A stretch of DNA of 64,000 nucleotides from Camelus dromedarius (lineage: Eukaryota): contig NC_087436.1 of the NCBI RefSeq assembly GCF_036321535.1, positions 32,180,001-32,244,000 on the forward strand, in the 5' to 3' direction. Shown piece by piece: positions 8,718-64,000 of this stretch. Both the position numbers and the translations under genes were made by a program. Position 1 is the first letter of the stretch; every line of letters begins with the position of its first letter. The notes beneath the pieces were generated by a model. It did not search any database. It was given only the letters and a program-made list of their open reading frames with translations, and had not been told where the DNA came from.

Positions 8718-8873
8718 AGGGTCCGTATGGAATATTTGCTGGTAGGGATGCCTCCAGAGGACTAGCAACATTTTGCCTAGATAAAGATGCACTTAAAGAT
8801 GAATACGATGATCTCTCAGATTTGAATGCCGTACAAATGGAAAGCGTTCGAGAATGGGAAATGCAATTTAAAG
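8718..8873 (+). CDS. PGRMC2: PGRMC2 internal coding exon (cytochrome b5-like heme/steroid-binding domain)
   Basis: Acceptor ttccctag|AG and donor AAAG|gtacc; 156 nt, phase 1 to phase 1. Encodes (E)[51 protein letters not shown], a MAPR-family sequence with the PGRMC2-type [15 protein letters not shown]. Confidence 0.97.
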
Positions 8874-8949
8874 GTACCTTTTTTGTCGGGTTCTTTTTGC
8901 AAATATTAAATTTATGGCCAAAGAAAGTACTTGCTATTTCATCACTCTT

Positions 8950-9033
8950 TAAGAGCCTAATGATACCTTCTGTTTTAATCCCCATCATTACTAAGAGCCT
9001 AATGATACCACCTATTTTAATCCCCATCATTAT
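8950..9033. repeat. 42-bp tandem duplication in PGRMC2 intron
   Basis: taagagcctaatgatacc..ttttaatccccatcatta occurs twice with few mismatches. Confidence 0.9.
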
Positions 9034-17721: not shown

Positions 17722-18513
17722 CAACTATTTCCTAATTATTAGTACATATGAGACTTAAAAGTTCATTTTTGTAATTAAATAACAAATCCCTTCTTGATTT
17801 AGTTCAATACTTTATACTTGATCTTATATGGCTACCTAGGCTTCAGTTTCTTAACTCTGAAAGACATTTTAGCCATGAAATATAATACTTTAACCAATAT
17901 GCCTCCCATTGTTTCCAGATAAAATCTGAAATAGCTTTTTATTTAATCTTTGAAATAAGATGTCATCAGAGGTCATGAGACTGACAAAGAGGAAAGATGA
18001 ACAAAATTAATCCTCTCGAAGACCAAAGTCAATGTGAAATTTAAGATAAGAGCATAATCTAGTAATTTTATTCAAAATCACTTCCCTTAACCCAAAGATT
18101 GATTTTTAAAAACATTTTTAACAAAAGTAACATGAAATCATTGTCTTTAGGGGAAAACAAAACCCTCAAACATTGCAGCTAATAGAGTGTTTGACCCTGC
18201 CCTAACTCCAACTCCTGATTCCTCTCCAAAGACAACCATGATTTTCAGTTTAGCGTGTACCCTTCTGATCTTTTTTGTAAGCGTTTACATTAATATAGCT
18301 GTACTTGTGGAAATATTGCAAAGCTTAAGTTCCAGAAACTGTAGACAAGCTGCCTGGGTTTAAATCCTAGCTGTGCAACTTTAGGCAAGACATTCAACTT
18401 CTCTATGCCCAGTTTTCAAGTCTGTAATATGGGGATAATTATAGTACCCAATTCATGGGGATGTTTTGAGGTTCAAATGCATTCATCTATGGAAAGCACT
18501 TAGAACAGTGTCT

Positions 18514-19874
18514 GACTGGACAGCAGCATGTAAATCAGTGAAGCTAGAACACTCCATTATACCATACACAAAAATAAACTCAAAATGGATCAAAGACTTA
18601 AACATAAGACAAGATACAATAAACCTCCTAGAAGAAAATATAGGTAAAACATTATCTGACATACTTCTCAAAAATGATCTCCTAGGGCAGTCTACCCAAG
18701 CAATAGAAATAAAAGCAAGAATAAACAAATGGGACCTAATTAAACTTACAAGATTCTACACAGCAAAGGAAACCATAAGTAAAACAAAACGACAACCTAC
18801 GGAATGGGAGAAAATTTTTGCAAACGAAACTGACAAAGCCTTGATCTCCAGAATATATAAGCAGCTCACATGACTTAATTAGAAAAAAACAAAGAAGACA
18901 ATCCAAAAATGGGCCAAATACCTAAACAAGCAATTCTCCAAGGAAGAAATACAAATGATCAATAGACACATGAAAAAATGCTCAATATCACTAATTATCA
19001 GAGAAATGCAAATCAAAACTACAATGAGGTATCACCTTACATCAGTCAGAATGGCCATCATTCAAAAGTCCACAAATGACAAATGCTGGAGAGTCTGTGG
19101 AGAAAAAGGAACCCTCCTACACTGCTGGTGGGGATGCAGTTTGGTGCAGCCACTGTGGAAAACAGTATGGAGATTCCTCAAAAGACTAGGAATAGACTTA
19201 CTGTATGACCCAGGAATCCCGCTCCTGGGCATAGATCCAGAAGGAACCCTACTTCAAAATGACACCTGCACCCCAATGTTCACAGCAGCACTATTTACAA
19301 TAGCCAAGACATGGAAACAGCCTAAATGGCCATCAACAGATGACTGGATAAAGAAGAGGTGGTATATTTATACAATGGAATACTATTCAGCCACAAAAAT
19401 GGACAATGTAACGCCATTTGCAGCAACATGGATGTTACTGGAGACTGTCATTCTAAGTGAAATAAGCCAGAAAGAGAAAGAAAAATACCATATGAGATTG
19501 CTTATATGCGGAATAAAAAAAAAAAATACAAAACAGAAACAGACTCATAGACAGAATACAAACTTTTAGTTGCCAGAGGGACAGTGGGTGGGAAGGGACT
19601 GGGATTTCAAAATGTAGAATAGATAAACAAGATTGTACTATGTAGCATAGGGAAATATATATAGCACCTTGTGGTGGCTCACAGCAAAAGAGAATGCGAC
19701 AATGAATGTACGTATGTTTATATATAACTCAAAAATTGTACTCTACACTGGAATTTGACACAACATTGTAAAATGATTATAACTCAATAAAAAAAAGTTT
19801 TTTAAAAAAGAAAAAAGAAATTATAGAAAATTACAATTAAATAAATTATATTCAAACAAAAGTAAAAAAAAAAA
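18514..19874 (+). mobile_element. Relatively young 5'-truncated L1 (ORF2 C-terminus plus 3'UTR) inserted in a MIR
   Basis: ORFs 18466-18873 and 18955-19569 carry ORF2 C-terminal motifs ([35 protein letters not shown]), broken by a stop. Poly(A) tail; AACAGTG on both sides (18504 and 19873); MIR halves at about 18330-18510 and 19875-19915. Confidence 0.92.
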
Positions 19875-25779: not shown

Positions 25780-26660
25780 ATTAGAACAATTAGATACCTC
25801 TATACACCTATTAGAATGACCACAAGCAGAACACTGACAACACCAAATGCTTGGGAGCGTGTGGAGCAATAAGAACTCTCTTTCATTGGTAGTGGGGATG
25901 CAAAATGGTACAGCCACTTTGGGAGACAGTTTGGAAGTTAAAAAACCAAACCAACTCTTACTATACAATCTAGCAATCACCCTCCTTGGTACTTACCCAA
26001 AGAAGCTGAAAATTTATGTCCACACAAAATGCTACACTTAGATATTTGTAGCAGCTTTATTTCTAATTGTCAAAACTTAGAAGCAACCAAGCTGTCCTTC
26101 AGTAGGTGAGCGAATAAACAAATTGTGGTACATCCAATGGAATATTATTCAGCGCTGAAAATAAATGAGCTATCAAGCCATGAAAAGACATGAAGGAATC
26201 TTAAATACATATTACTAAGTGAAAGAATACAATCTGAAAAGGCTACATACTGCATAATTCTAACTATATGACATTCTGGAAAAGACAGAACTATGGAGAC
26301 AGTAAAAAGATCAGTGGTTGCCACAGTTGGGGGAGGGATAAATAGGTGGATTTGAGGATTTTTAGACAGTGAAATACTCTATATGATATTATAATGATGG
26401 ATACATGTCATTATACATTTGTTCAAACCCATAGAATGTACAACACCAAGAGTTAACTCCAAGTTAAACTACGGACTTTGGATGACTATATGTCAATATA
26501 CATTCATCCTTGGTTAAAAAAAAAAAAGTACCATTCTAGTGAGTGATGTTGATAATGGGGGAGGCTGTGCATGTGTATGGGCAGGGGGCATATGGAAAAT
26601 CTCTATACCTTCCCCTTCTCAATTTTGTTGTAAAGCTAAAACTGCTCTAGAAAAAAAATG
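25780..26660 (+). mobile_element. Old L1 3' fragment (L1MC-like)
   Basis: Degenerate ORF2 end plus 3'UTR ending ctcaattttgttgtaaagctaaaactgctctagaaaaaaaa. Same family as the copies at 50.6 kb and 60.3 kb. Confidence 0.85.
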
Positions 26661-26865
26661 TATGTATGTACATATACATACATGTTTTTTTTTCTAATGG
26701 CATGTTTAGAAACCCTCTGAGAAAACTTCTGGAAGGGTAACCAGGAAATGAATGGGGGAACTGGGAGAAACAGGTGGGAAGAAAGACTTTTCTCCAAATA
26801 CTAATGTGAATTTTAAGCTAAGTGAATGTAATGTCTATTCTAATATATATATATATATATGTATG

Positions 26866-26906
<41 letters not shown>

Positions 26907-28004
26907 TAAAATATATCAAGATACCAATTTGGAAGGTCTAAATGCTAAGGAGTTTCTTTTCGGCAACACTGAGTGACATGATTAAAGGAGCATTTATGAA
27001 AGGAATGTCTAGCATTAGAGGACAGGACAGTGAAGAGTGGGAGGGATGCTTTGAAGTAGAGGCTTAAACTTTTATTTGTAGCTCTGGCTAGTAGCTTGCA
27101 CCTGTTAGGCTCTGATAACATGTCCGTTGCTACTGGGGTTGTCACTGCTGTGGTTAATGATGATAATAACGTCCATGATGGTGAGGGCAGTGAGGGCAAT
27201 GATAACACTTGGTATGGTAGGAATTAGGGAAGGTTTTGGAACAATCCACACAGAGATTCTGCCTATTTCTCTAAATTCCATCTTCTGTTCTGACAGTCAT
27301 TGCTCTAGTTTAAATCCTGTCCAAAACAATGAATAAGAAAGAGTCTTTGGCATTGAGAAATTCAAAAATGGTGGAAGAGTATGAGAACCATCCACTAAGT
27401 GAAACACCCACTAGGGTACAGAGCACTTTAAAAGAAGTCTCAGCCTCTAATGGTAGCATAGAGGATAGAGCCATCAAAGAATACAAAATCTTTAGGTATA
27501 TTTAGAATTTTCGAGCTCAAAAAATCCTTATTTAACCCTTACGATAAGCTTGTGTGGTGGACATTGTTGTTTCTGTTTTTAACGGAAAAAATTGAGATCA
27601 ACAAAATAAGAGTATGAGTTCTAGAGGTGATAGACTGGTTATAAATTCTGGCTCTGCCACTCAGTCTTGAGCAAGTTATTAACCTAAAATTCAGTTTCCT
27701 CACACAAAACATTAGGTTAATAACAGTACCTACCACACAATTGAGGCTGAAATGAAAAAAGTATATGAAAGTTTTTCAAGTCTGGTAAATAATGAGTACT
27801 CAGTATCTTTTGGCTCTCTTTCCTCTTCTTATTCCTCTGTCTTCTCCATGATGGTGTCTCCAACTCACTGCTCTTGGTTTCAGCCACTCAAGTTCTGTCT
27901 GCCTCTTTTCAGCTAACTTTTTATTTGACTATTTTCTGAGCAATTATGAGTTTCTGCTTCTCCCTCGCTGTAAAGCACTTAGCCCATCATTTATTCTTAA
28001 ATCT

Positions 28005-29580
28005 TTTTTTATAGTGGTAAAATACATATGGCATAAAAATGTACCATTTTAGCCATTTTAAAGTTTATTCAGTGGTATTATGTACATTCACAATATTGCA
28101 TAACTGTCTTCAAAACTTTTTTATCAACCCAAACAGAGACCTTATACCCATTTACCAGTAAAAACTCCTCATTCTTTCTCCCCCTAGGTCCTGGTAACCT
28201 CTGTTTTAGTTTCTATGAATTTGCCTATTATAGGAGCCTCATCTGACTGGAATCATACAATATCTGTCCTTTTGTGCCTGGCTTCTTTCACTTAGCATAA
28301 TGTTTTCTAGGTTCATCTATTCTGTAGCATGTATCAGAATTCCTTTTTATGACTAAATAATATATTCCATTATATGGATAAACCACATTTTGTCCATTCA
28401 GCTGTCAGTGAACATTGGGGTATTGTGAATAATGCTGCTATGAACATTGGTGTACAGGTATATATTTGAGTCCGTGTTTCTTTTACGTATATACCCAGAA
28501 GTAGAAGAGTTGGGTCTCAATGGTAATCCAATGTTTAACATTTTGCAAAACTGCCAAGATGTTCTCCAAAGCAGTTGCACCATTTCTGCCAGCAATGCAC
28601 AGGGTTCTAATTTCTCTACATCCTAACACTTGTTATTTTCCTTTTTTTTTTTTTTTGGATTTTTGTTTTTATAATAGCCATCCTAATGGGTATGAGTGGT
28701 GTCTTCATGGTGATTTTGATTTGCATTTCCCTAGTGACTAATGATGTTGGTCATGGTTTATTGGCTATTTGCTTATCTTCTTTGGTGAAATGTCTATTCA
28801 AGTCTTTTGCTCATTTTTAAATTGTTTTATATATATGTGTGTGTGTGTGTATGTATATATATATATGTATCTCCATTTTAAAGTCCAGTATTTTATCTTT
28901 TTTGGGGGGGGGAGCAGATTAGGTTTATTTGTTAATGGAGGTAATAGGGATTGAACCTAGGACCTCGTGCATGCTAAGCATGCACTCTGCCACTGAGCTA
29001 TACTCTCCCCACCGAGTCAGGTTGTTTTTGTTGTTGAGTTTTAGGAGTTCTTTATATATTCTGGATTATTAATCCCTTATCAGATTTATGACTTGTAAAT
29101 AGTTTCGCCACTCTGTAGGCTGTCTTTTCAGTCTTTTCATAGTATCATTTAATGCACTAAATTTCTTAATTTTGAAGAGGTTCAATTTATCTATATATTT
29201 GGTTGACAATGCTTTTGGTGTCATGCTCAAATCATTGTCTAATCCAAAGTCATGAAGATTTTCCCTTATATATATATTCTGAGTTAATTTTTGTATATGA
29301 TATACAGGAGAGGTCCAGCTTCATTATCCTATATGTTGGCTATCCAGTTTTCTCAGCACAATTTCTTGAAAAGATGGTCCTTTCCCCATTGAATAGTGTT
29401 GGCACTTCTGTTGAAAATTGACTATATATGAGAGTTTGTTTCTAGGCTCTCTATCCAATTCCATTGGTCTATATGTCCATCTGTGTGCCAGTACCATGTT
29501 TTGATTATAGCTTTGTAGTACATTTTGAAATTGGTAAGTGTGAGTCTTCCAACTTTGTTTTTTTTTTCAAGATACTTTTG
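28005..29580 (-). mobile_element. Old L1 3' fragment containing a SINE at about 28895-29012
   Basis: Minus-strand ORF2 remnants (YYKAIIKTWYWHTDGHIDQWN) and a 3'UTR. Confidence 0.85.
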
Positions 29581-29738: not shown

Positions 29739-30274
29739 TGTGGAGGAACAAAATTTCCTCTCCCCTTCTGGGTTCTTCAGGATGGTCTAAGAATTAAACT
29801 GACATGAGCTAGATTAACGGGAGAAAATCAAACAAAGCTTAATAACATGTGTACATGGGAGAGACCCAGGAAAACTGAGCAACTCGCCAAAATGGCCAAG
29901 GCCCTTACCTTAAATATCATCCCCAGTTAAAGACAAACGAGAATGTTGATGGTGGGGAGAGACAGTTATGGGAGGTTACCAGGAAAAGCAGAGTAAACAA
30001 AGGTAAGGCTGTTATGCAGATTTAAGTCCTTGCCTTCTCCACTGATAAGAGCTCCTAGAGATTCATTTGGTCCTTCTCCTCTTCCAAGTATACAGAGGGT
30101 AATACCCTTACAAATGGAGATTTCCCTTAAAAATGTAAGTTTCTTAAAAAAGGCAACTCTTACTTGGTTTTCAGAGCCCTTCTTATGTCTGCTGTTTATC
30201 AGAAAATAACCAGCCTAAAACAATTAATATGCCAAAGAGATATATTTTGGGGTGGTAAGTTCTGCTCCCCTACA
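29739..30274 (-). mobile_element. ERV1 LTR (MER34/MER39-like), copy 1
   Basis: Minus strand starts TGTAGGGGAGCAGAACTTACCACCCCAAAATATATCTCTTTGGCATATT and ends in CA. Confidence 0.75.
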
Positions 30275-30593
30275 ATAGCTTGTGGTCACATTATGAATAA
30301 ATGGTAGTGACATTATGGTGCTGTAATTAAGGAAACCCAGAAACCCCATCAGGGTACTATATCGGTAAGAGTACTTCATAAGGAGAGCAGAATTAGGAAT
30401 TCTAGTTGGAACTAGAATTCCAAATCTAGTTCCAACTCTGCACTTACAAGAAGTGACCTTAACAAATCTCACCTCTCTAAGGGTTAATTTATTTTCATTC
30501 ATCTATAAAATGGAGATAATACACCTGTTCTGCATACCTCATGGGGCTATAATGAGGCTCAAGTGACATGAAACGTTTGGCAGACATGGTATA

Positions 30594-31121
30594 TGTAGGG
30601 AAGCAGAATTTGCCATCCTAAAATATATCTCTTTAGTATATTGCTTTAGGCTGGTTATTTTCTGGTAAACAGCAGGCATGAGAGAAGCTCTGAAAACTGG
30701 GTAGAAAGACTTTTGTAAGAAACATTTATATTTATAAGAAAAATTTATATTCATAATGTTGTCTCCCTCTCTACACCAGGGAGAGGAGGACCAAATCTCT
30801 AGTAACACTCATCAGTGGAGAAGGCAAGGACTTAAATCTGCATAAAAATCTTACTATTGATTACTGTGCTTTTCCTGGTAACCTCCCATAACTGACTCCC
30901 CACCAACATCTTATTTTGTCTTTTGTTGAAGATGGTATTTAAGGTGAGGGTTTTGACCATTTCAGGGAGTTACTCAGTTTTCCTGGGCATCCTGCATATA
31001 TACAGGAAGTATACACATTACCAAACTTTTTTTCCCCTCCTGTTAATCTGTTTTACATCTATTTATTAGAACAGGCAAAGAACCTAGAAGAGAAGTAGGA
31101 AAAGTTTTTTCCTCCCTTAAA
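30594..31121 (+). mobile_element. ERV1 LTR (MER34/MER39-like), copy 2
   Basis: Starts TGTAGGGAAGCAGAATTTGCCATCCTAAAATATATCTCTTTAGTATATT and is alignable to copy 1 in inverted orientation. Confidence 0.75.
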
Positions 31122-47362: not shown

Positions 47363-48609
47363 CTGTTTGAGGAGGGGGAAAATGTGTTCAAACTGAAATA
47401 TCAAGAACCAAGTGCTTAAACCAATTTGAACTATTTGTTACTGAGAGTCTGAGCAGTGGAAAAGACATTAGTCCCCAAAACTCACCTAAACTACTGAACA
47501 TACAGATCTACATATGAATTGCTATTTATGTTCAATACATGGGTAAATTCCAAAGTTGATAAAGAACATAGTCATAAATTCTCAAACTAAAACTGTAAGT
47601 AGAAGCACATAATTAAATAATTAGCTTATTCCTCTTCTAGATCCATTATTAATTTAGTTTAGATTAGTTTATTTTTCTTATGTTAGCAGGGAAATTTTCA
47701 GTCGTCATAAGTAATTAGGTTAATGATATACACTGAATCAGCAGAAACAAGGGATAAAACCTGGTACAAAGGCAATAATTTCATTATCCCAAAGACACAC
47801 TTGCAATTCTGTAAATCTATTCCATTTCTGATATTTCGCCTATATCTTTTCTTTCTCATCTGCACTTCATTATTCAAATTGAGGCTTTCCTCCTCTTTCA
47901 CTTGAATTAACTGGTCTCCTTGTTTTTCCAATCTCTCTCCTCTTTCTGCCACCAAAATGATCTGTCTAAGACTGATCTAAATAAATGGTTCTCAACATGT
48001 GGTCTGTAGATGCTTGGAGGGGTTCCCAAAAACCTTTCAGAAAGTCTGCAAAATCAAAACTATTTTCATAATAATACTAAGATATTATTTGCCCTTTTCA
48101 CTGTGTTCACATTTGTGCTGATAGTGCTAAAGCAATGATGTATAAAACTGTTAATGTAAACCCAGGCAGTGGTTACTAGTGGTTGTATTATTCACTGCTA
48201 TGTACTTGAATTTTTTTTTAAATGCCAGTTTCAACTTAGGATGTCCTTGCTGAAGAAAAAAAAAAAAGTAACTTTATGAAATTTCAGCCCTTGAGTACAT
48301 GTCTTACTTACTGTGTGTGACAAAATGGGGAAAGAAGCTGTAGTTTTGCAAAATGAAAAAGTTCTGCAGATGTTTCACAGCAACGTGAAGATACTTAACA
48401 CTACCAAACCATATTCTCAAAAATAGTTAAGATGGCAAATTTTATGTTATATGTTTTGTTTTTTATTGTAATAGTTAAGGGGGAGAAAGCACTTTAACAG
48501 CACATCAAAGTACGATGGCTGCTGTTATCAACTAAATATTTGTTGAATTCCTAATTTCCAATGTGATGGTATTAGGAGGTAACTGAGTCTTGACGGTAGA
48601 GATCTCATG

Positions 48610-51600
48610 GCCTCAGAGAATAAGCATTCCCTTCTCTTCAATTTCTCAAAAAAAAACTGAGAAGGATTAGTGTTAAATCTTCAAATATTTGGTAGAATTC
48701 ACTAATGAAGCCATTTAGTCTAGAATTTTGTTACGGATTTTTGATTACTGATTTGATCTCTTTACTTCTTATAGGTAGGTTGAATTTTTTATTTCTTCTT
48801 AAATCAGCTTAGGTAATTTATATGTTTAAATAAATTTATGCATTTCTTCCAGGTTACCTAATTTGTTGACGTATAATTTTTTATAGTATTCTCTTAGAAT
48901 CCTTTTTCTCTCTGTAAGGTCAGTAGTAAAATCTCCATTTTCATTTCTGATTTTAGTTACTTGCATCTTCTTTTGTCCCCTGGCAGTTTAGCTAAAGAAG
49001 GGTTTGTCAGTTATGTTGATCTTCTCAAAGAACCAACTTTTGGTTTCATTGATTTTCTCTATTGTTGTTTTCTTCTCTATATTGTTTATCTTTGCTCTAA
49101 CCTTTGATATTTCCTTCCTTCTGCTATCTTTGGATTTAGTTTGCTCTTCTTTTTTAAGTTCCTTAAGGTATAATGTTATGTTATTGATTTGTGATCTTTC
49201 TTCTTTTTAAATGTAGGCATTTATAGCTACAAATTTCCCTCTAAGCACTGCTTCCCCTGCACCCCATAAGATGTGGTACGCTGTGTTTCTGTTTTCATTT
49301 ATCTCTAAGTACAGTCAGTCCTCAGTATTTGTGAGGGATTAGTTACAGAACCCTCCACAGATGCAGAATCCATGGATGTGGAAGGCCAACTGTATTTTCT
49401 AATTTCCATCATGATTTCTCCTTTGACCTAGGAGTTGCTTAAAAATGTATTGTTTAATCTCCACATTTTCAGTTTTCCTTCTGTTAAGGATTTCTAACAT
49501 CATGCCACTGAGGTAAAAGAAGATAGCTTGTGTGATACTTCTACTGAAACTTCTATTATGGCCTAACACATGGTCTATTGTGGAGAATTTCCCATGTGTA
49601 CTTCAGAATTTGTATTCTGTTGTTGTTGGTTGAAATATTCTATAAATGTCTGTTAGTTCTAATTGCTTATAGTGTTATCCAAGTCCTCTATTTTGTTACT
49701 CATCTTATGTTGGGTCGATCTATGCATTATTGAAAGCAGGGTATTGAAATCTCCAACTATTCTTGTAGAATTGTTTATTTCTCCTCTCAATTCCATCAAT
49801 TTCTGCTTCATATATCTTGAGCAGCTGCTATTAGTTACATAAATGTTTATAACTGTTATATATTCTTTTATACTGAACTTCAATTAATATATAATGTCCT
49901 TATCCCTTATAATTCTTTTTGGATTTAAAGTGTATTTTGTCTGATATTAAAATATCAGCTCTCTTACATTTGCATCTTTTACCACCATTTCATTTTCAAT
50001 CTATTTGTGTTTTTGAATCTAAGTCTCCAGTAGACAGTATATATAGTTGGATCATGTGTTTATACCATTCTGCCAATCTCTGTCTTCTGACTGGAAAATA
50101 CAATCTATTTACATTTGAAGTAACTACTGATAAGGAGGCACCTACCACTTTATTAGTTTTCTATGTGCCTTATAGATTTATTGTCCCTCACTTCCTCTGT
50201 TACTGCCTGCTTTTGTGTTGTTTTTTTCTTTTGAGTGAAATATTTGATTCCCTTCTCATTTCCTTTTATATATATTCTATTGATTTTTTTTTGTGGTTAT
50301 CATGAAGATTACACTTAACAAAAACTCTGCTCTTATACACTTCTGTTTTCCCCTTTCTATTACTGATGTCATAGATTACATATTTATATACTGTATACCC
50401 AACATAGATTAATTTTTTTAATGCATTTGTCTTTTAAATCACATAGAAAGTTGAAACTGGAGTTGCAAATTAAATTGCATTTTTACCAAAGATCTTTCTT
50501 TCTTCATACGGCTTCATGTTACTGTCTAGTGTCCATTCGTTTCAAGCTAAGGACTACAATTTCTTGCTGAGAAGGTCTAGTGGTGATGAACTCCTTCAGC
50601 TTTTTTTTTTTTTTTAATAGACTTTATCTTTTAGGGCAACATTAGGGTTACTGAGTGGAAGGTACTGAGCTTTCCCTAAACCCTCTGTATTCTGGCTCCC
50701 CACACCACAGCTTCCCCCACTATCAACATTCACCACATCTAGCACCAGAGTGGTACATATGTTACAAATGAGGAGCCTACACTGATACATCATAATCACT
50801 GAAACATCATAATCACTGAAAGTCTGTAGTTACATTAGCGTTTACTCTTGGTGTTGTACATTTCACTGGCTTGTAAATGTATAACCAGATGTAGCCATCA
50901 TTATAGTAGCATACATGGTATTTCACAGCCCAGAAAATCCTCTTTGGTCCACCTATTCATCCCTCCCTACCCACAACCCCTTGAAACAACTGGTCTTTTT
51001 TATTATCTCCATAGTTTTCCTTTTCCAGAGTGTCAAATAGTTGAAATCATACAGTATATAGCCTTTTCAAATTGGATTCCTTCACTTAGTAGTATGCGTT
51101 TACAGTTCATCCATGTCTTTTCATGGTTTGATCACTTGTTTATTTTTAACACTGGGTACTATTCCATTGTCTGGATATACTACAGTTTATTTACCCATTT
51201 GCCTAATGAAGGACATCTTGGTTGCTTCCAAGTTTTGGCAATTATGATTAAAGCTACTATAAACACTCATGTGCAGGTTTTTGTGTGAACATAAGTTTTC
51301 AGCTCCTTTGGGTAAGTACCAAGGAGGGCAGTTGCTAGATTGTATGGTAAGAGCATGTTTAGTTTTGCAAGAAACTTCCAAACTGTCTTCCAAGGTGGGT
51401 GTACTATTTTGCATTCTTACCATCAATGAATGAGAGTTCCTGTTGCTCCACATTCTCACCAGCAGTTAGTGTTGTCAGTATTCTGGATTTTAGCTTTTCT
51501 AATATGTGTGTGTAGTAGAATCTCATTGTTGTCTTTCTTTCAGTTCTCTGATGATATATGATGTGGAGTATCTGCATATGCTTATTTGCCATGTATATAT

Positions 51601-54370
51601 CTTCTTTAGTGAGATGTTTTTCCAGGTCTTTGGCCCATTTTCTAATCAGTTTTTTTTTTTTTAAACTCTTGAGTTTTAAGAGTTCTTTGTATATTTTGGA
51701 CAGTAGTCCCACCAAGTCTCTTGCAAATATTTTCTGCCGTTCTGTGCCTTGTCTTCTCATTCTCTTGTCAGTGTTGTTCCCAGAGCAAAAGTTTTTCATT
51801 TAATGAAGTCCAGCTTATCTATTTCTTCCTTCATGAATTTTGCTTTTGGTGTCATATTTAAAAAGTCATCACCAAACCCAAGATCAGGTAGATTTTTCTC
51901 CTCTTATCTTCTAAGAGTTTTATGGTTTTGTGTTTTACATTTAGGTCTGTGATCCATTTTGAGTTAATTTTTGTGATGGGTGTAAGATCTATGTTTATAC
52001 TTATTTTTTGCATGTGGATGTCCAACTGTTCCAGCACCATTAGTTAGAAAGATTATCTGTGCTCCATTGTAATGCCTTTGGTCCTTTCGTCAAAGACCAT
52101 TTGACTATATTTATGTGGGTCTATTTCTGGGCTCTCTATTCTGTTCCATTCATCTATTTGTCTATTTTTTCACCAATATCACACTGTCTTCATCATTGTA
52201 GCTTTATAATAGGTCTTGAAGCCAAGTAGTATCAATTTTATAACTTTGTTCTTCTCTTCAAATATTGTGTTGGCTATTCTGGGTCTTTTGCTTCATCATA
52301 TACTTCAGAATCAATTTTTGTTTTTAAATGGAAGTATTGAGGATTGAACCCAGGGCCTCGTGTATGCTAAGCATGTGCTCTACCACTGAGCTATGCCCAC
52401 CTCCCTGAGAATCAGTTTGTTAATATGCACAAAATAACTTCCTGGGATTTTTTTTATTGGAATTGTATTGAATATGTAGATCAAGTTGGGAAAAACTGAC
52501 ATCTTGACAATATTGAGTCTTTCTATCTTTGAACATGGAACATATCTCCATTCATTTAGTTTCTTGATTCCTTTCATCAGAGTTTTATAGTTTTCCTCAT
52601 ATAAATCTTGTACATATTCTGTTAGGTTTATACCTAACTATTTCTTTTTGGTGGATGATAAATAGTATTTCACTTTTAATTTCAAATTCTACTAGTTTAT
52701 TGCTAGTATATAGGAAGTGATTGACTTTTATATGTTAATCATGTATCCTGTAATCTTGCTATAATTATTTATTAGTTCCAGGAGTTTTTGTTCATTATTT
52801 ATGACTTCCTACATACGCAATCATGTCATCTGTGAACAAAAGCAGTTTTATTTCTTCTTTCCAAATCAATATATCATTTCCTTTTCTTTTCCCTCACGCT
52901 TTGTTTATCTTTGAATATCTCTCTCAATTCTGAAGGGCAGTTTTGCCAGATATGGAATTCTTAGTTCAGCTGATACATTTAGTAAGGATTCCATGTATGT
53001 GATGAGTCTCTTCTCTCTTGCTGCTTTCAAGATTTCCTCTTAGTCTTTGATTTTTAACAGTTTGATTATATTATGTCTTGGTGCGAGTCTCTGTGGATTT
53101 AATCCTACCTCAAGTTCATTAAGCTTATCAGATTTGTAGATTCATATATTTCATCAAATTGGGAGGTTTTCTGTCACTATTCTTTCAGCGCCTTTTTTCT
53201 CCTTTCCTACTGAGATTCCCACAATGTATGTATTGGTTCAGTTTATGTGTCCTACAGGTCCCTTAGATACTATTTATTTTTTCTTCATGCTTTCTGTTCC
53301 TCAGACTTGATAATTTTAAATTGCCCCATCTTTAAGTCTGCTGATTCTTCTTTCTTCTGTTTGATGAAATCTGCTTTTGAACACTCTGATGCATTTTTCA
53401 TTTCAGTTATTATATTTTCTTCTCCAGAATTCCTTTCTGGGTCCTCTGTAAAATTTCTATTTCTTTATTGATGATCTTGTTTTCTTCATACATTGTTTTT
53501 CTATTTTTACCCATATCTTCCTTTAGCTTTCTGAATATCTTTAAAATAGCTGTTTTAGAGACTTTGCCTAGAAAAAATGGCATCCAAGCTTCATCAGGTA
53601 CATTTTCTGTCTATTAATTTTGTTCCTTCAAATGGGCCATATTTTCTTATTTCTTTTTTTTAAGGCTTGTGATTTTTTGTTGAATGCTGAACATTTGAAT
53701 CTTATGATGTGGTAACTCTGGAAATCAGATGCTCCCTCTTCCCCAGGGTTTCCTGTTTTTTGTTTGTTTGTTTGTTTGTTTTTCAATTGTTGCAGGGTGC
53801 TTCTGTGCTGGGACAAGCCTGAGGTGAAAGCTTAAATTCTCCTAAGGTCTTTTCCGAGCCTACAGCTGTCCTTGGGCATGGGTGGTAGTTTTCTAAATTT
53901 ACTGCTATTAGCAGTTGTTTCTGAACATCAAAAAACAAATAAAAAGGACAGTCACACAGTGAGACGAAACAATGGCCACCAGACTATGTCTGCACTTTGT
54001 TGCTAAGCGGCAATTAGCAGTCAAAACACAGAACTCCAATATTTGGAGGATATGGTCCTTCCTGCCTATTCTGGATCCAGCAAGCCATACCAGAAATGTG
54101 GGTTGCCATCTTCCCAAATACCTGTCACAGGGCTGAGGCGGGGGTGGGAAATGCTACTAGAGGATCAAAGGCTGACATCAACCAGTATTAATAATTTACA
54201 AGACAAGCTTTCCCCTGGAAGCTATATGTGTTCAAGTAGACTATACAATTCCATAATGTCAATGCCGACAGTTTCTGCTAGTAAAATTGTCTAAGTGGTG
54301 AGAAGGATTCCTGTTCTTTCCCCCTCTGCTATCTTCCTGACATTACTCTCCCTTGTGGTTATTTTTTTAA
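48610..54370 (-). mobile_element. Old L1 (ORF1/endonuclease region) interrupted by a second L1
   Basis: Minus-strand endonuclease remnant (ITVINIYV...IVGDFNTLLS, ORF 49659-49883). The sequence breaks at ccttcagcttt (about 50600) and resumes at cctcacgcttt (about 52892). Confidence 0.8.
50601..52890 (-). mobile_element. L1MC-like 3' fragment, copy A (contains a SINE at about 52314-52405)
   Basis: T-run tail at about 50600-50615, 3'UTR and ORF2 remnants ([24 protein letters not shown]). Confidence 0.88.
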
Positions 54371-54819
54371 TGTCATTTTTTTTTTGAAATTGCATTTTGA
54401 GATAAGTCAACATTTAGAAGTCTGCATAACTCAGTCAATCAATATTTCCAAATGACCAATGCATGATGTTACAAAAGCATGCACAGACAAAAAGATCCAT
54501 TCAAAGTGTAGGATAGTCCAATGGCTTTTAATGTAAGAGTATAAAAACTTCCTGGGTATAAAAAGGTCATTGATATATGGTTTCAGATTCCATATTGCAA
54601 TTAACTTTAAAAAAACCTGCCACTTGTTCAGCTTTGATATAATAGCAAAGAATACCAACAATGATCCAAAAAGGCTATAAAATACTCCTCCTTTTCCTAG
54701 ATTTTATTTCTATACTTCAACAATAACAAAAAACAAATTATAAGCATTTTATATATAGAAACATATGAGAATCTAGTTACCTCATATTAAGTGAAACACT
54801 GAACAAATATGCAAAACTT

Positions 54820-54933
54820 TTTTTGGGGGGGGATTAAGTTATTAATTTGCTTGTTTATTTGTTTAAATGGAGGTACTGGGGATTGAATCCAGGACCTCGT
54901 GCATGCTAAGCACACTGAGTTCTACCCTCCCCC
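54820..54933 (-). mobile_element. tRNA-derived SINE with TSD
   Basis: Flanked by aacaaatatgcaaaactt and aacaaatacgcaaaactt. Confidence 0.85.
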
Positions 54934-57008
54934 AACAAATACGCAAAACTTTAAAACAATACCTCTCTATTCAGGAATTTTTGTTTAGAGAAATATAATT
55001 ATACTTTATAAAGATATGTTATTTACATTAATATATAATAGCTTTATTATGTTATTTAAATGAGTATTCAAATTTTTTTGTTTTACTTTATAATTCAATT
55101 TATTTTTTTATTTTTTAATTATATAACTCCCATAAACAAAAGTTCTTTGAGGTGCTCAGTAATTTTTAAAAGAATAAAGAGTTTCTTAGACTAAAAAGTC
55201 TGAAAAACCATTTAACTAAATCATATCACTTTTGGCACTTAGAACTCATTGCCTACAGAATAAGCTATGAATCTGCAGCCATACCTAGATCCATCATAGA
55301 ATTCTATATTCAATGAGAATGTCTTTCAAAATGAAAAGAAGAATCCTTTTTCTGATAAACAAAAGCTAACAGAATTCACTGCCAATAGACCTACACAAGA
55401 AATGGTTAACAAATGAAAAGCATTGAAAATGGCAAAAAGAATATTTTTAAAATTTCCTTTTTCATGTTAATTGCTTTAAAAGATAACTGTCTAAATAAAA
55501 AATAATAACAAAATACAGCACAAAAGAGGAGGCAACAGAACTTTACTGTTGTAAGATTCTTATATTATACACGTAATGGTATATTATTTGAAAGTAGTCT
55601 ATATGTTAAAATGTATATTTCAAACCCAAGAAGACCAGTAAAAAATAAGAGATATAACAAGAAGTCAATAGTAGAGATAAAACAGATGCATTATAAAAAG
55701 TAAGGTGATTCAAAAGAAAGTAGGAAAAAAGAACAAAGAATATAAGATAATAGATTTAAACCTAATCACACCAATAATTACATTAATATAGATGGTCCAA
55801 GGATATGAATGCTCACAGTGGGGAGGCTATGATGTGGGAAGCAGAAAGGCATAAGGGAACTCTGTACTTTTCACTCAATTTTGCTGTGTACCTAAAACTG
55901 CTGTAAAAGATAAGTCAATTAAAAAAATTTCACCCCTCATTATTGTAATTGCAGACTTGTCTGTCATCTCTGAATTAAGATCCAGTAAAGTAGGGACTGT
56001 ATCTATCTTGCTTCCTGCTATATATAAGTGCAACACTTTTCACCATTACCTATTGATCTCTTAACTATACTGCTCCAATTAAAAAACCTGGGAAACAAAC
56101 TGTCAAAATGACTTAGAACACAAAATAACTATTAGTATACAATAGGTGCCCAAGAAGAATACGTACATATTTTAAAGACAATATATCCAATGAGAACAAA
56201 ATGTAAAAGTACCAAATAAGTATCACTGAAAAGACTTGGAGATTTTCAGATCATGATAAATTTCCTAGCTTTTCCTTGAATGAAACTAATTCTTACCTTA
56301 TAGTAACCAGTCAAAAAAAAAAAAAAAAAAAACTTTGCTAAAGCTCATTTTTCAGTTAGAAAGCTGTTCAGATAATTATTCTGAAAATATCTTCACAAAT
56401 ACAGGATACGTTTTCAAGAGACAAAAAGCAATTAGTAAATCACCTCTGTATCCACTCTACAGCACAAAACAGCCATACTCTGTTGGATTTCACTGGCATT
56501 GTAAAAGGTTTGCTCTATCATCTCTTTTTAGGTAAATAATAGTATTTTTTAAAAATTAAAGCTAAAAGAAAAATCACTTACTGTTAATAACCAGTTAATA
56601 TAAATTATTTCCCCCAAAAGGAAAAATTCTGAACTATTAATGTGTTTTATTTCCATATCCTTTATATAGGTTGAGTAGATTGTTTAGCACAATAAGAACC
56701 TACTGTGCTACAAAAAATCTGGAATCTTTCCAAAGATAGTAACTTTCATAGACCTAAATATTTTTAATAAGAGTATACATTTGTGGAAATTACTTTAAAT
56801 GGGAAAAAAAAATGTCCTACTGAATTATTCCTTAATGTACTTATTGTAAAACTGTCCCACTTATCTTCTTTGGCTTCTTGTTTTACTGTTTTCATTGTTC
56901 AATAATTTGCTAACATACTAATTCTTAAATATTCCCAAATATCTAATTAGTAACTGTTTTCAACAAACTTAAAATCAAAAACAAAACAATGTTTGACAAA
57001 TACAGTAC

Positions 57009-57115
57009 CTGACAGAGGATGTTCTTGGCCCATGATCTCTGGAATCCATTACCCAGCCAACATGACACTCTAGAGGAGGATTTGTACTATGTCTTGTTTT
57101 TCTCTTTCTTGGACT
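57009..57115 (-). CDS. LARP1B: LARP1B coding exon
   Basis: Acceptor ccttag|AGT and donor AG|gtact; 107 nt, phase 0 to phase 2. Encodes SPRKRKTRHSTNPPLECHVGWVMDSRDHGPRTSSV. Not in the ORF track; translated by hand. Confidence 0.95.
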
Positions 57116-57572
57116 CTAAGGAAAAAGAAGTCAAACATTGCAATTACTTTCAGTAGTGTGAACCTCACAAATAAATTAAAACCCTCTGACTGTAAACCAA
57201 CTCAAACATTTTCATATTGTGGATGACACATTATGAAATCATATGAAGTCACAAAACTCAAACATCTCACATACAAGTTACAAAACTTAACAAACAAGGC
57301 TCTTTGCTAGGTTTCAACACACAGATTAAAGGAAATACAATAGAATGAGTCTTCATTATACCTTCTGATCGTCTTTAATTACACTACCCATGGTAAAGAA
57401 GTTATTCCTCAACCTGAGAAAACACTGCTATGGTAAAATATCATTTTTAAATGAATTCTTGCAATCTAAAATGTACTTTTTTTTCTTTTACTGTGATAGA
57501 AACTAAAAAGTCTCATTTTGTAATGTTAAAGTATATAAAATGCAGGCTTTATAGTCCTGGTGTTTTGTGTAC

Positions 57573-57784
57573 CTTTACATCAACGGCTTTTGGTTCTTTA
57601 ACAACAGGATAAAATCTTGGTGTTTTATTCGGATCTTGTAATCTGGGTGTTCGAGGTGTTTTGGCTGCCCTGGCAGGATAAATTGTAGGAGATCGCGGAA
57701 CTGCTGTAGGCAATGAATGGGCAGTTGTTGCTGAAGACATATCTGAAACATCAAACAGTTTCTGAGCTAGTTCATCAGTCAAAT
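57573..57784 (-). CDS. LARP1B: LARP1B coding exon
   Basis: Acceptor ttttcag|AT and donor AAG|gtacac; 212 nt, phase 1 to phase 0. Encodes (D)LTDELAQKLFDVS...KTPRTPRLQDPNKTPRFYPVVKEPKAVDVK. Confidence 0.95.
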
Positions 57785-58989
57785 CTGAAAAATAAAAACC
57801 TGTTAAAATATTTGGGTGCTAGGAGAATATTTTACTTTGAGAAGAAGGAAAATTCTAAAATTCTCTAAACTCAGAGGATTTTTTCATTAGAAACATTTCA
57901 AATATATAAGAAAGAATTTTAAAAAACACTTCTCTACATATCACTTACTAAATTTTAATTTTGCTTTCTTTCTGGTTTATTTATTAAAGAAAAAGAAGTT
58001 AAAGCCCATTGTGTAACCTTTCCTAATCCCATTTTGCTTTTCCTCCTCAGAGATAACCAGGCTCTTAAATTTGGTATTTTTATCTATTACTATATATATA
58101 TAATATATATAATATAATTTTGCATAATTAACTTTATATATGTGGTATCACACTATATTATCATTTTGCAGCCTTTTTTGGTCAATATTTTGTTTGAGAA
58201 GATTATTCAAGTTCTATTCATAAAGCTTTGGTTTACTCATTTTCACTGAAGAATATCAAACTGTTATACAACTATCAAAAATTACTCATTATCCTTAAGA
58301 CACTTAAGTTATTTCCAAATTTTTGGTATAATCAAAAATGCTTCAATGAACATTGCTGAACATGTCTCTTTGTATATGTGTGAGCATTTCTCTAGGGTTT
58401 ATAGTTGAAATGGAAATGCTGAGTCAAATGGCACATGTATCTTCTGACTCACTAAATACTGATTGCCAAGCTGAGTTCTATAGTGGTTTTATCAATTTAT
58501 ACTTCAACCAGCAGCATATAAAAGTCCCAGCAATTTAACATCCTGGCTAAGACTGGTTTTTGTTTAGACTTTTAAATATTTTTTTCCATCTCATGGGATT
58601 TAAATGGTATTTGTATTTCCTAGTAAGTTGAGTGTATTTTCATAGATACAGTCATCATTCAAATTTCCCTTTTGTGAACTTGCCTTTTTGACTGTTCTTC
58701 TGTTAGATTGTTTTACTTACAAGTTTGTGAAAATCTTAAGGTAAGATACTAAATAAGCAGATGAGCAAATAGTAATATCAAAAATATAAGCTTTAGTTCT
58801 ATATGGTTTTTCTTCAGACTTATCAACCTCTTTTGGTTCATACAATAACTTTTTGTTCATTCAACAAATATTACTGAATGCCTATTATATGTAAAGCACT
58901 ATTCTAGACACAAGTTTGTAAATTCAAAAGTGAACTTACCCACTCTATTACTAGTATTCCTGTATTAACAATTTTCCTCCCAATTCATT

Positions 58990-59545
58990 TTCCTTACTAT
59001 AACCAGAATGATTATTCTGAGGAGCAAATTAGGTAGTTTCATATTTCTATTAAAAATCTTTCAGTGTTTCTCTTTTGGCTTTAGGAGAAGTTGAGGCTCT
59101 TTACTATGGCACATAAAAATTTCCTGATTTTGCTTCATCAATTGTCATTCTCCACTTCAATTTTGGTGCCCCAAATAGCAACCTACTTATTGTTCCCGTT
59201 TTCTTGCTTCATGTCTTTTTATATGCTTTTGCTCTACCTAAAAGTCTCTTCCCCTCATCTTTTTACATCCAGGTGGCTTCATATCATCCCTTTAATATCC
59301 AGAACAAATGTTACTTTCCCTGGGAATGTGTAGCATTCTTGAAAATCTTCTGCCAACAGAATTAATCTATTCTTTCTGGTGAAACCTCTGCATTTTATCT
59401 ACTTATTTTTTTTAAATTATGAAGTTAAAATTAATTTTCTTACAAAACATTCCATTAGATGCTAACAGTAAGTCCCAGTGCTTCCCTGAAAGCAAGGGCC
59501 ACAATTTATATTACTATACCAGTGTCTACAATTGTGCCTGGGGAA
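58990..59545 (+). mobile_element. Degenerate L2 fragment
   Basis: tcatccctttaatatccagaacaaatgttactttccctgggaa and gcttccctgaaagcaagggcc...tgtgcctgg resemble L2 3'-region motifs. Confidence 0.6.
59315..59349 (-). other. Cryptic or degenerate 35-nt LARP1B micro-exon inside an antisense L2
   Basis: ggcag|AAGATTTTCAAGAATGCTACACATTCCCAGGGAAA|gtaaca. The 3' part reads MLHIPRE, resembling the human LARP1B GGVQGVLHIPKK segment as I recall it. The pyrimidine tract is weak. Confidence 0.5.
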
Positions 59546-60278
59546 AAGTATATCCCCACCAAATGACTGATACACTTAACTCAATCGTGTTAATGCCATT
59601 TATCTGTATAGCAAAAAGATACAAAATCTCAGAGATAAAAATACGATCACACACTGAAAAACATATTAAATCCAATGTCCTTGTAAAAGAAATATTCAAA
59701 GAGCTAGGAGCAATAACTCAGAAACAGTAAGCTTCCTAGCATCCAGATTATGGTCTCTAAATTCTATTTCCCACTGATCCGGTCTCCTGAAAAAACAGTC
59801 TGAAGCACAAAGTATTATATGAGTCGAGGAAATCTTGAGCCACAAAGCAATGAAGTTTAAAATGAAAATATTAGCATAGTTCATGAAGAATAGAAGAAAC
59901 TTTAGGGGAATACAGTGGTCAAAAATGAACTGATATTATCACTAAAAACGATGACTGAATTGAATTAAAACACATAAATATATTCCATCAGTTCATAATG
60001 GTATTTTAAAACTTAATCATATTTCTAGGTTGCTCTGAAGATGATAAACTGAATACAAAGAAAGAAATAAGAATATATCCTTCCATTCTTAAGGTAAAAA
60101 CTGAATTTCAGGTAAACAAAGTTGATAAAAATATTCTTATACATAGAATTCTAGGTAAGAAACACAGAAGAAAAGACAGAATTAGAAGATGACTACTTTG
60201 CAACTCTAATGAAATAGAGGATCAAGGGAATGTTCATCATTAGTTGCTAAAATTATTTGGTAAAATGTTGACTAGAGA

Positions 60279-61530
60279 TTTCACAACCCACGAAACAAAT
60301 AACTGATAAGCTGGATTTAATTAAAACAAAAACCTTTTGCTCTGGGAACAACACTGACAAGAGAATGAGAAGACAAGGCACAGAACGGCAGAAAGTTTTT
60401 GCAAGAGACTTGGTGGGACTACTGTCCAAAATATACAAAGAACTCTTAAAACTCAAGAGTTTAAAAAAAAAAAACTGATTAGAAAATGGGCCAAAGACCT
60501 GGAAAAACATCTCACTAAAGAAGATATATACATGGCAAATAAGCATATGCAGATACTCCACATCATATATCATCAGAGAACTGAAAGAAAGACAACAATG
60601 AGATTCTACTACACACACATATTAGAAAAGCTAAAATCCAGAATACTGACAACACTAACTGCTGGTGAGAATGTGGAGCAACAGGAACTCTCATTCATTG
60701 ATGGTAAGAATGCAAAATAGTACACCCACCTTGGAAGACAGTTTGGAAGTTTCTTGCAAAACTAAACATGCTCTTACCATACAATCTAGCAACTGCCCTC
60801 CTTGGTACTTACCCAAAGGAGCTGAAAACTTATGTTCACACAAAAACCTGCACATGAGTGTTTATAGTAGCTTTAATCATAATTGCCAAAACTTGGAAGC
60901 AACCAAGATGTCCTTCATTAGGCAAATGGGTAAATAAACTGTAGTATATCCAGACAATGGAATAGTACCCAGTGTTAAAAATAAACAAGTGATCAAACCA
61001 TGAAAAGACATGGATGAACTGTAAACGCATACTACTAAGTGAAGGAATCCAATTTGAAAAGGCTATATACTGTATGATTTCAACTATTTGACACTCTGGA
61101 AAAGGAAAACTATGGAGATAATAAAAAAGACCAGTTGTTTCAAGGGGTTGTGGGTAGGGAGGGATGAATAGGTGGACCAAAGAGGATTTTCTGGGCTGTG
61201 AAATACCATGTATGCTACTATAATGATGGCTACATCTGGTTATACATTTACAAGCCAGTGAAATGTACAACACCAAGAGTAAACGCTAATGTAACTACAG
61301 ACTTTCAGTGATTATGATGTTTCAGTGATTATGATGTATCAGTGTAGGCTCCTCATTTGTAACATATGTACCACTCTGGTGTGGGACATTGCTATGAGGA
61401 AGGCACATCTTTCACCACATGGGCTTTAGCTAAGCAAGTTGGGGTCAAGGAGTAAATGGGAAATCTCTATATCTTGCTCTTAATTTTGCTATGAGCCTAA
61501 AATTGCTCTAGAAAAAAAAAATCTTTAAAA
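60279..61530 (+). mobile_element. L1MC-like 3' fragment, copy B
   Basis: Has its own 3' tail taattttgctatgagcctaaaattgctctagaaaaaaaaaa. It interrupts another old L1 3'UTR that resumes at about 61531. Confidence 0.88.
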
Positions 61531-63111
61531 AAGGTGAAGGGAAACTTTATGATGAATAGATCAGGCTGACAACATCTAAACCCAATGATCAATCATAGCA
61601 TAAGTAAATGTGAGCCTGAAAGATATTGTATGATGCAATAAGAAATAAACAACTCCTGTGAAATAGGCTTGCCACCACAAAAATAAAAATCCTAAATATA
61701 CTAAATTTGTATCTAAATACCAGTTCACAAGAAATAGAGGAGATAAAAGAACACAGGTAAACATGAATCATAAGAAATCCTATGATAAAGTAACTAGTTT
61801 CTTCAATAAATCTTTAGAATGGAAAAAGAAGAGAAGAAGAATGATTAGAGATTATGAGTGACTTAATGGTCTTATCAATCAAATGCTACATGTGTACCTT
61901 GTCTGGTCCTGATTCAAACAACAAATTAGAAAAATTATATTTCAGACAATCAGAGGCAATAAATATATACTGAGTAGTAGATGATATTAAGGAATTATTA
62001 CTAATTTAATGTGAAATAATGATATCATAAAAATATATATATACAGTGGGTATTTACAGAAGAAATAATGCAGTGTTTGAGATTCGTGGGCCATCTCTCG
62101 TACATGAACGTTCAAAATAGCATTTTTCATAATAGCCCAAACTGAAAAAAATCCAAATATCCATCAACTGCCATACAGGTAAACAAAATGAAGTGTGTCC
62201 ATGCTATAAAACACCACCTCATAAAAAGGAGCGAAGTACTGATCTAAGCAACAACATGGATTAACCTCAAAAAATATATGAACTGAAAGAAGTCAAGACA
62301 CATTGATTACATATCACATGATTCCATTTACATGAAATTTCCTGAAGGTAAAAAAAAACATACAGTCAGCAGATCACCAGTTACCTCAGACTGAAGCTGA
62401 GTGTTGAGACTTGACTGCAAATGATCATGAAGAAACTTTTAGCATGATGGAATTCTAAAACTAAATCATAGTGCTGGTGTACAAGTATACAAATTTACTG
62501 AAATTCATCAAAATATACACTTAAAGTGAGTTAATTTTATGTAAATTATACCTCAAAAAAGCTTTACAAAACAAAAAGATCAGGCCATCTGCTCTTCAGG
62601 GAATCTCAGTTGTGATTGTCTACCATACAGTTTCTGCTAAAAGTAGTATCAAATCAGAGAGGGCTGATATTTCAGAGGATCAAGCTAAAACACTGATTTT
62701 GAAAGTACAGTCCCACCAGTGGCATCAGCATAACCTGTGAACTTGTTAAAAATGCATATTCTCAGGTCCCACCTCATTTTACTAAGTCAAGAAACTCTGG
62801 GTGCAGAGTTCTTTGATTTGTTTTAACAAGCTTTCCAAGTGAACCTGATGCTTGCCAAAGTTTAATAACCACTGGACTGAAAGGTATGCTAACTATTCTA
62901 CTACTTAAGATTTTCCATATTTTATTGGTACCAAATAATTGCACAGGTGCTTATGGACCTTCTCCATAGCCCCCAATGTCTTTATAGACAGGAATTGCCT
63001 TTATAAAAGCAGAACTTAATATTAAGCTATTGGTGTTCACTGAAGGCTGATAATAAAAATGCTATATAAGGACGGACACTTTATTTTTTATGTAAATAAA
63101 ATGCTACTGAA

Positions 63112-63310
63112 GCAGGACTCAGCAAACTTTTCCTATAAATGCCAGATAGGAAACTTTTTTTTGGTTTTTCAGATCATAAAGTCTCTGATGAAACTATTCA
63201 ACCTTACCACTGTAGCATAGCCACAGACTATAAGTAAATGAAGGATATGGCCAGATTGGACCATGGCAGGCCAGTTCTGGCCTATGGGTAATAAATTTGC
63301 CGATCACTGA
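63112..63310. mobile_element. MER58-like hAT MITE
   Basis: Termini caggactcagcaaact ... atttgccgatcactg. Confidence 0.7.
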
Positions 63311-63329
63311 ACCAGAGCAGTCAGATAGA

Positions 63330-64000
63330 TGGGGATCCAAATACTAGATTTAAATTTGCTTACAAAAAAGTCATTATAACTATATTTCATGTATTCAGTA
63401 AGGTAGAGGAAAGTATGACCACAGCAAAGAGATACAGGCAATAAAAAAGAACCCAATACAACTTCATGAGAGGAAAAACCCAACAGCTGAGATTAAAAAA
63501 AAAAACAAGGAACAAAAACCAAAACAACCCATACTAGATGGGTTTAAAAATAGATTAGACACTGCAGAAGAAAAGTCTAATGAACTTAAAAACATAGGAG
63601 TAGAAATTGTCTAAAACAAAACACAAATTAAAATATGACTGGGGGGGCAGGAGGAGGGCATTAGTGAACTGTGGGAGGTGAAGTAGCTTAATATATATGT
63701 AACTGGAGTCAAAGAAATAATTTTAAAGTACATAAAAATTATTAATTTTTAAAATTTAAAATGCTAATTTAAAATATGGCTAATTTTTTTTTCAAATTTG
63801 ATTTAAAATATAAAAACACATAGGTACAAAAACTCAATAAGCCTAAAGTACAAGAACACTAAGAAATCACAACAAAGCAATCGCAAACTGCTTACAACAG
63901 GTGATAAAGAGAAAATATTAAAAGCAGCCAGAATCAATAGCAGTTATTGAATCTGATCAACAGAGCCAAAAAAAATTGGAAAAATTAATCAAGCCTCAGG
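63330..64000 (+). mobile_element. Degenerate L1 ORF1-region remnant
   Basis: tagattagacactgcagaagaaaag..tgaact and gataaagagaaaatattaaaagcagccaga are L1 ORF1-like. Confidence 0.65.

Follow-up and report, generated by a model that had tools for sequence, protein, structure and literature searches.

A near-identical 1-kb inverted tract in LARP1B introns of the dromedary, very probably the product of gene conversion between two old L1 copies

We analysed a window of 64,000 nucleotides from the dromedary, Camelus dromedarius (contig NC_087436.1 of assembly GCF_036321535.1, positions 32,180,001 to 32,244,000). The feature described here lies in LARP1B, a gene on the minus strand. La-related protein 1B of whale and deer matches the exon at 57573-57784 with 84% identity, and the pig protein, aligned to extended sequence, gives 18 exon matches, all 18 of them collinear on the minus strand across 39.6-141 kb. 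Two LARP1B coding exons, together 319 nt and thus not a multiple of three, lie between two nearly identical stretches in opposite orientation:

57573..57784, minus strand: LARP1B coding exon in the spacer, 212 nt, bounded by AG/GT
57009..57115, minus strand: LARP1B coding exon in the spacer, 107 nt, bounded by AG/GT
50743..51791, minus strand: left arm, the putatively homogenised tract in an old L1 copy (end of the ORF2 region and 3' UTR; alignment and repeat finder)
60334..61381, plus strand: right arm, the inverted counterpart of the left (alignment), carrying both derived substitutions (60395 and 60397)

Elsewhere in the window, on the strand opposite to LARP1B, an exon at 8654-9040 (plus) encodes a membrane-associated progesterone receptor-like peptide, which we take to belong to PGRMC2.

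The initial annotation had described 50743-51791 as the reverse complement of 60334-61381 across an 8.5-kb spacer. A global alignment of the left arm with the reverse complement of the right bears this out: 1046 of 1048 aligned bases are identical, there is one additional 1-base homopolymer indel, and the full-arm spacer measures 8542 bp. The three differences are the indel at 51650 and the substitutions at 51728/60397 and 51730/60395, the same T13/A12 length difference and two substitutions near 51728-51730 that had been noticed earlier by eye. No difference of any kind is found over 50743-51649 (907 bp), and no substitution over 50743-51727 (984 bp). A repeat finder returned the same pair of arms, with 922 nt at 100% identity and 8795 nt between them. 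The 17-bp tandem duplication at 50787-50820, previously proposed to be private to the two arms, is exact in both and missing from all 19 other aligned family copies. Open reading frames are mirrored as well, with coordinates that add up to 112124, as had been stated: one pair, read from stop to stop, encodes 149 amino acids (50839-51288 on the plus strand, 60836-61285 on the minus strand) and the other 92 (51187-51465 minus, 60659-60937 plus); the lengths of 146 and 90 given earlier differ only by the definition of the frame. These frames were rejected as genes; they are chance frames in decayed L1 sequence, the longest being 92-149 amino acids.

Each arm is part of a longer L1 copy, presumably L1MC-like in both cases, as judged from the sequence of the 3' end. 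The copies and their surroundings are as follows:

50604..52890, minus strand: whole left L1 copy, about 2.3 kb, with approximate ends; it has an A-tail of its own (near 50604-50620), and its 5' part (51792-52890) is unconverted
60285..61530, plus strand: right L1 copy in full, about 1.25 kb, truncated at its 5' end near 60285 and with its own 3' tail at 61382-61530
50000..50600, no strand assigned: outer half of an older, L1-like host repeat split by the left copy (genome search)
52890..53490, no strand assigned: inner half of the same host repeat (genome search)
52317..52405, minus strand: tRNA-derived SINE inside the unconverted part of the left copy

The tract makes up about 84% of the right copy. 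Read in L1 sense, both copies run in register past the tract at both ends and each finishes in its own A-rich tail; 5' of the tract the left copy extends about 1.1 kb further, while the right copy ends about 50 bp out. The SINE we take to be of the camelid Vic type. An Rfam search of 48000-64000 returned the tRNA-like head of a SINE and a single miRNA match below threshold, and nothing else.

The earlier description had given each copy diverged flanks, a 3' tail of its own and a host element of its own. The flanks and tails held for both copies, and the host element for the left one. Both flanks of the left copy match five common loci in the genome, where they are collinear and 525-837 bp apart, compared with about 2.6 kb here, so the left copy split an older L1-like element whose halves are still in order; a degenerate candidate target duplication can be seen by eye at its two ends. 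This split host element shows that the left copy was inserted separately. For the right copy, two flank searches for a host element (with 7 and 28 non-self matches) had no locus in common, and a search for a clear target duplication found none. From its own truncation point, its own tail and its unrelated flanks, we infer that it too was inserted separately.

The limits of the tract were located by scoring each copy against the majority letter of the 19 other copies. The features that define them are:

50787..50820 (mirror 61304-61337), no strand assigned: exact 17-bp tandem duplication, private to the arm pair (multiple alignment)
50610..50742, minus strand: unconverted 3' tail of the left copy, 66 of 122 positions identical to the right tail (54.1%, a rough figure given the poor tail alignment)
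51792..51835, minus strand: unconverted homologous 5' flank, 32 of 44 positions identical to the right copy (72.7%), with no private sites in common
50743..50758 (mirror 61366-61381), no strand assigned: outer edge window of 16 bp, in which both copies have the family majority

Within the tract, 136 of 994 sites in the left arm and 137 of 993 in the right are off-majority, and 135 of these carry the same letter in both arms. Nine private indel events are also common to the two, including the 17-bp duplication. The picture changes abruptly at both borders: the 44-bp 5' flank has five off-majority sites in the left copy and six in the right, none in common, and the tails have 29 and 25, four in common. 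At the outer edge the last common derived site is 50759 and the first arm-specific site 50741, which places the end of the tract within a 16-bp word; at the inner edge the switch occurs between 51788 and 51792, that is, within 3 bp. Both substitutions that separate the arms are derived in the right arm; they lie 2 bp apart, about 60 bp from the inner edge, and may represent one event. Just beyond the outer edge, each of the unconverted tails carries a private insertion, and the two have in common a 10-base word, TTCACCACAT, in direct orientation (50729-50738 and 61411-61420, both on the plus strand). A match of this kind was reached in 15 of 3000 shuffles, in a test chosen after the word had been seen; the word may be left over from template switching or have arisen by chance.

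The L1 family itself was characterised genome-wide (171 contigs, 2.31 Gb; 11,813 candidates, of which the best 40 were scored) and against a local background of 164 kb (the 64-kb window and 100 kb adjoining it) plus 18 loci. The tract is 99.8% identical between the arms and 74.6-78.5% identical to the 19 other copies, which among themselves are 75.3-83.0% identical (171 pairs, mean 78.9%). A tree of the family, with the third copy (25785-26660) left out, is star-like with a median end branch of 0.13, and the arms join on a stem of 0.16 with 100/100 support, so that the family appears as an old, star-like one. The many equally identical copies that would mark a young active family were looked for: of the best 40 among the 11,813 candidates, none but the two arms is above 78% identity, the other scored copies being 72-78% like the arms, and a search with the whole right copy agrees in finding no young family copies. 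A young active L1 subfamily was rejected as a candidate, with 2 of the best 40 scored matches above 78% and longest frames of 92-149 amino acids. No other pair of at least 200 bp above 80% identity was found in the 164 kb. By these comparisons chance is excluded as the origin of the arms' identity.

Other members of the family lie close by:

25785..26660, plus strand: third family copy, an unconverted control; identity to each arm 76.9%, longest exact run 23 bp

That this copy differs from both arms had been reported before, and the figure of 76.9% to each was obtained over 25785-26493. Patchy conversion was sought in three other nearby pairs, involving this third copy, a copy about 41 kb beyond the right arm and the inverted pair at 29865-30987, and none was found, the longest exact runs being 23, 30 and 35 bp. 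A few further observations concern the surroundings. The two halves of the inverted pair (29865-30283 and 30584-30987, about 300 bp apart) are not homogenised: their identity is 77.7% and their longest exact run 35 bp. A fourth family copy inside LARP1B (contig positions 32282461-32283298) is 76-78% like the arms and unconverted. A younger L1 3' fragment at 18445-19600 (plus strand) has a stop-free ORF2 stretch of 228 amino acids and is about 64% like the arms, and an AT microsatellite (26836-26923) and an AC/GT microsatellite (28813-28876) give several weak inverted matches of an ordinary kind. Look-alike windows in other genomes numbered zero.

Our preferred explanation, which we consider very probable on the sequence evidence, is that two old L1 copies, separately inserted in opposite orientation, were later homogenised in one direction over about 1.05 kb across the 8.5 kb between them. 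Intrachromosomal gene conversion had been suggested at the outset, and it is supported by the common private substitutions and indels within the tract, the independent divergence at both edges, the in-register borders, the star-like family and the lack of young copies. Three features of non-allelic conversion are found together here: homologous copies that existed beforehand, a bounded tract (99.8% identity inside compared with 72.7% and, roughly, 54.1% outside) and a non-reciprocal transfer. The transfer is read as one-way because a reciprocal exchange would swap differences and not erase them; the flanks are read as not exchanged because the left host element is continuous at the five loci and the exon order is intact (18/18 on one strand).

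The course of events may be pictured as follows. Two members of one old L1 family would have inserted separately, in opposite orientation, into the introns that flank two LARP1B exons, and each would have decayed on its own. About 1.05 kb of one copy would then have been overwritten by the sequence of the other with no exchange of flanks. A break or a stalled fork in one copy may have been repaired with the neighbour 8.5 kb away as template and without crossover, by either non-allelic gene conversion or template switching, and the copying was perhaps primed at the conserved 16-bp word of the outer edge, as a microhomology. Which copy was the donor cannot be read from the unconverted 5' part of the left copy, which is 70-80% like 11 of the 18 loci, the range of the tract itself. 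With two substitutions in 1048 bp and assumed rates of 1.5-2.5e-9 per site per year (our own range), the last homogenisation dates to 0.38-0.64 Myr ago (95% range 0.05-2.3 Myr); the camel rate given in the available part of PMC8605555, 2.5e-8 per five-year generation, leads to about 0.2 Myr. The last copying thus probably took place less than about 2 million years ago.

How many events were involved is a closer question. The unconverted flanks are at present 54-73% alike (the lower figure being rough), compared with an optimum for conversion of 89-100% quoted in the accessible text of PMC8230782. In yeast, homeology reduces template switching by a factor of about 400 and gene conversion by one of about 230,000 (PMC4215184, as excerpted), so a single event between such diverged templates would be intrinsically rare, and continuous exchange since the copies were young is a serious alternative. 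Mammalian conversion tracts are, according to the part of PMC3961182 at hand, rarely above 1 kb. The alternative, a variant of the preferred explanation and compatible with it, is long-running concerted evolution with occasional crossovers, in which exchange between the arms began soon after insertion and has gone on since, and the orientation of the spacer alternates in the population. It is a possibility of some weight, although the less probable one: it requires no single event between copies 25% diverged, and an earlier tract of greater width could explain the two substitutions near the inner edge, but it does not fit easily with the abrupt edges and the fully independent divergence just outside them, nor with a spacer in ancestral orientation. 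GC-biased conversion gives it no support either. No excess was found in the arms (weak-to-strong and strong-to-weak changes of 50:62, compared with 745:1048 pooled, p=0.55; equal or higher GC* in 6 of 19 copies), in a test of modest power; the result does not speak against one event, and lends no support to long-running meiotic conversion. From the abrupt edges, the full divergence just outside them and the lack of a GC-bias excess, we modestly prefer a single long event, or a few, to homogenisation that has continued ever since insertion.

Crossovers between such arms have precedents. In the portions of PMC3961182 and PMC6748972 available, human inversions with near-identical repeats are validated and many are recurrent, which favours concerted evolution with crossovers; they include HsInv0347, with THE1C arms of 1.6 and 1.6 kb around an inversion of 7.1 kb, and HsInv0341, with L1PA3 and 6.2 kb. 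These polymorphic inversions resemble our locus in having transposon-derived inverted arms a few kb apart, an architecture suited to inversion by homologous recombination. They differ in that the arms here are shorter than any in the table of PMC3961182, as far as it was available, that no inverted allele is known, and that the spacer holds two frame-shifting coding exons. Similarly, LINE-1 pairs in opposite orientation underlie human inversions in PMC9675761 (median similarity 97.1%, median size 5,487 bp in the text available); there the similarity is that of the L1 pair as found, whereas here an old pair acquired it later, and no rearrangement is visible.

The arms had accordingly been proposed as a substrate for inversion of the enclosed LARP1B exons. 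Near-identical inverted arms do stand at both ends, but the assembly studied has the spacer in normal orientation, and what stands is the potential only. A fixed inversion of the spacer was considered and rejected, as the exons are in normal order (18/18) and the halves of the left host element are in order. A crossover between the arms would take 319 coding nt out of the message. Six candidate combinations of exon boundaries leave the normal frame open, and in each of them skipping of the two exons leads to a stop within the following exon, after 1-12 codons, a cost that also argues against regular flipping of the spacer. The C-terminal part of the protein is encoded downstream of the spacer exons, so that an inverted allele would probably amount to loss of function; conversion without crossover would presumably be harmless.

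An artefact of assembly or polishing, by which the sequence of one arm was copied into the other, is unlikely. The 984 bp without a substitution, and two lone substitutions about 60 bp from the inner edge, where reads anchored in the flank would resolve them, do fit polishing that hides a few interior differences, but polishing of this kind acts only between arms that are already near-identical. A swap in the assembly graph, on the other hand, needs long exact matches at both ends, and two runs of at least 31 bp at least 900 columns apart occur in 0 of 190 unconverted family pairs (3 of 190 at 21 bp). Further, the right arm has derived alleles of its own, and 171 contigs for 2.31 Gb with no N in the 164 kb suggest long reads. 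In 14 sequencing runs that are of DNA type or unlabelled (two organism labels), 0.94-0.96 of the words of 50301-60300 are present, a measure that cannot distinguish one arm from two.

The arms also bear on the RNA. One arm lies in each flanking intron, and in the pre-mRNA they are predicted to form a duplex of 1045 pairs with -1949.5 kcal/mol, a pairing geometry that could promote editing, skipping or back-splicing. Three runs labelled or guessed to be RNA (X15-X17) contain 0.55-0.76 of the words of the mostly intronic 50301-60300, and may hold the stretch as DNA. A known circular RNA of the same gene, circLARP1B, is driven by reverse-complementary intronic repeats that flank the circularised exons (PMC10787103, in the part available). 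It might be proposed from this and from the fitting geometry that selection keeps the arms identical, with the duplex looping out the two exons for LARP1B regulation, either by skipping into decay or as a 319-nt circular RNA. We regard this as quite improbable. The known circle consists of exons 2-4 (294 nt) with Alu/B1 pairs (PMC10787103, same part), in another part of LARP1B, while the exons enclosed here are two late ones. In addition, the arm ranks at or near the top of the family in divergence (0.137 off-majority compared with 0.098-0.146) and has no sign of constraint, and the duplex energy is a trivial consequence of identity at the DNA level. The homogenised pair is most likely a neutral by-product. 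Least probable of all is that a recent inverted segmental duplication or an L1 transposition made the second arm: the arms are indeed near-identical and have a single partner, but both ends pass in register into older, diverged L1 sequence of one family with a tail of its own in each copy, no unique DNA was copied, and the element lacks a long reading frame and has no other young copies among the best 40 scored.

Conversion between neighbouring repeats is a known process, of which gene conversion between these two L1 copies is a new and unusually clean instance. For neighbouring Alu and LTR elements, the available parts of PMC6598467 and PMC8230782 describe the same one-way replacement, a tract of reduced divergence and distances below 10 kb, with conversion raised between Alu copies less than 10 kb apart. 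The present case differs in the old L1 fragments involved, in its near-perfect tract of about 1.05 kb and in unconverted flanks that are (roughly, at the lower end) 54-73% alike where the quoted optimum is 89-100%; what is unusual is that copies about 25% diverged have a 1-kb tract in common. In yeast, microhomology-dependent template switching allows copying from one highly diverged sequence to another (PMC4215184, as excerpted); that is a laboratory system, and for the tract in the LARP1B introns such an origin is a conjecture from the sequence. A literature search for LARP1B together with an inverted repeat or an inversion found no description of the locus in the texts available, and supplementary inversion tables could list the orthologous site; the LARP1B-related material in the part of PMC4976967 at hand concerns a rat pseudogene.

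The tract in the LARP1B introns does not open a new kind of system. Its value is that of a clean, datable natural case in which about 1 kb was overwritten between repeats whose unconverted parts are at least 25% diverged, an event that, to judge from laboratory data, is very rare. The locus allows a cheap test of one-off template switching versus continuous concerted evolution through assemblies of sister species. It is conceivable, though improbable, that the arms have been homogenised independently in several related species and are active in RNA, the duplex looping out the two frame-shifting exons (as regulated skipping into decay or as a lineage-specific 319-nt circle) and rare crossovers yielding LARP1B alleles that lack the C-terminal part; if this were true, conversion would have turned a dead L1 pair into a maintained regulatory and mutational switch. 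More generally, the locus indicates that an old, safe pair of repeats can be made anew into a substrate for inversion that encloses coding exons, with a potential 1-kb duplex in the pre-mRNA created alongside.
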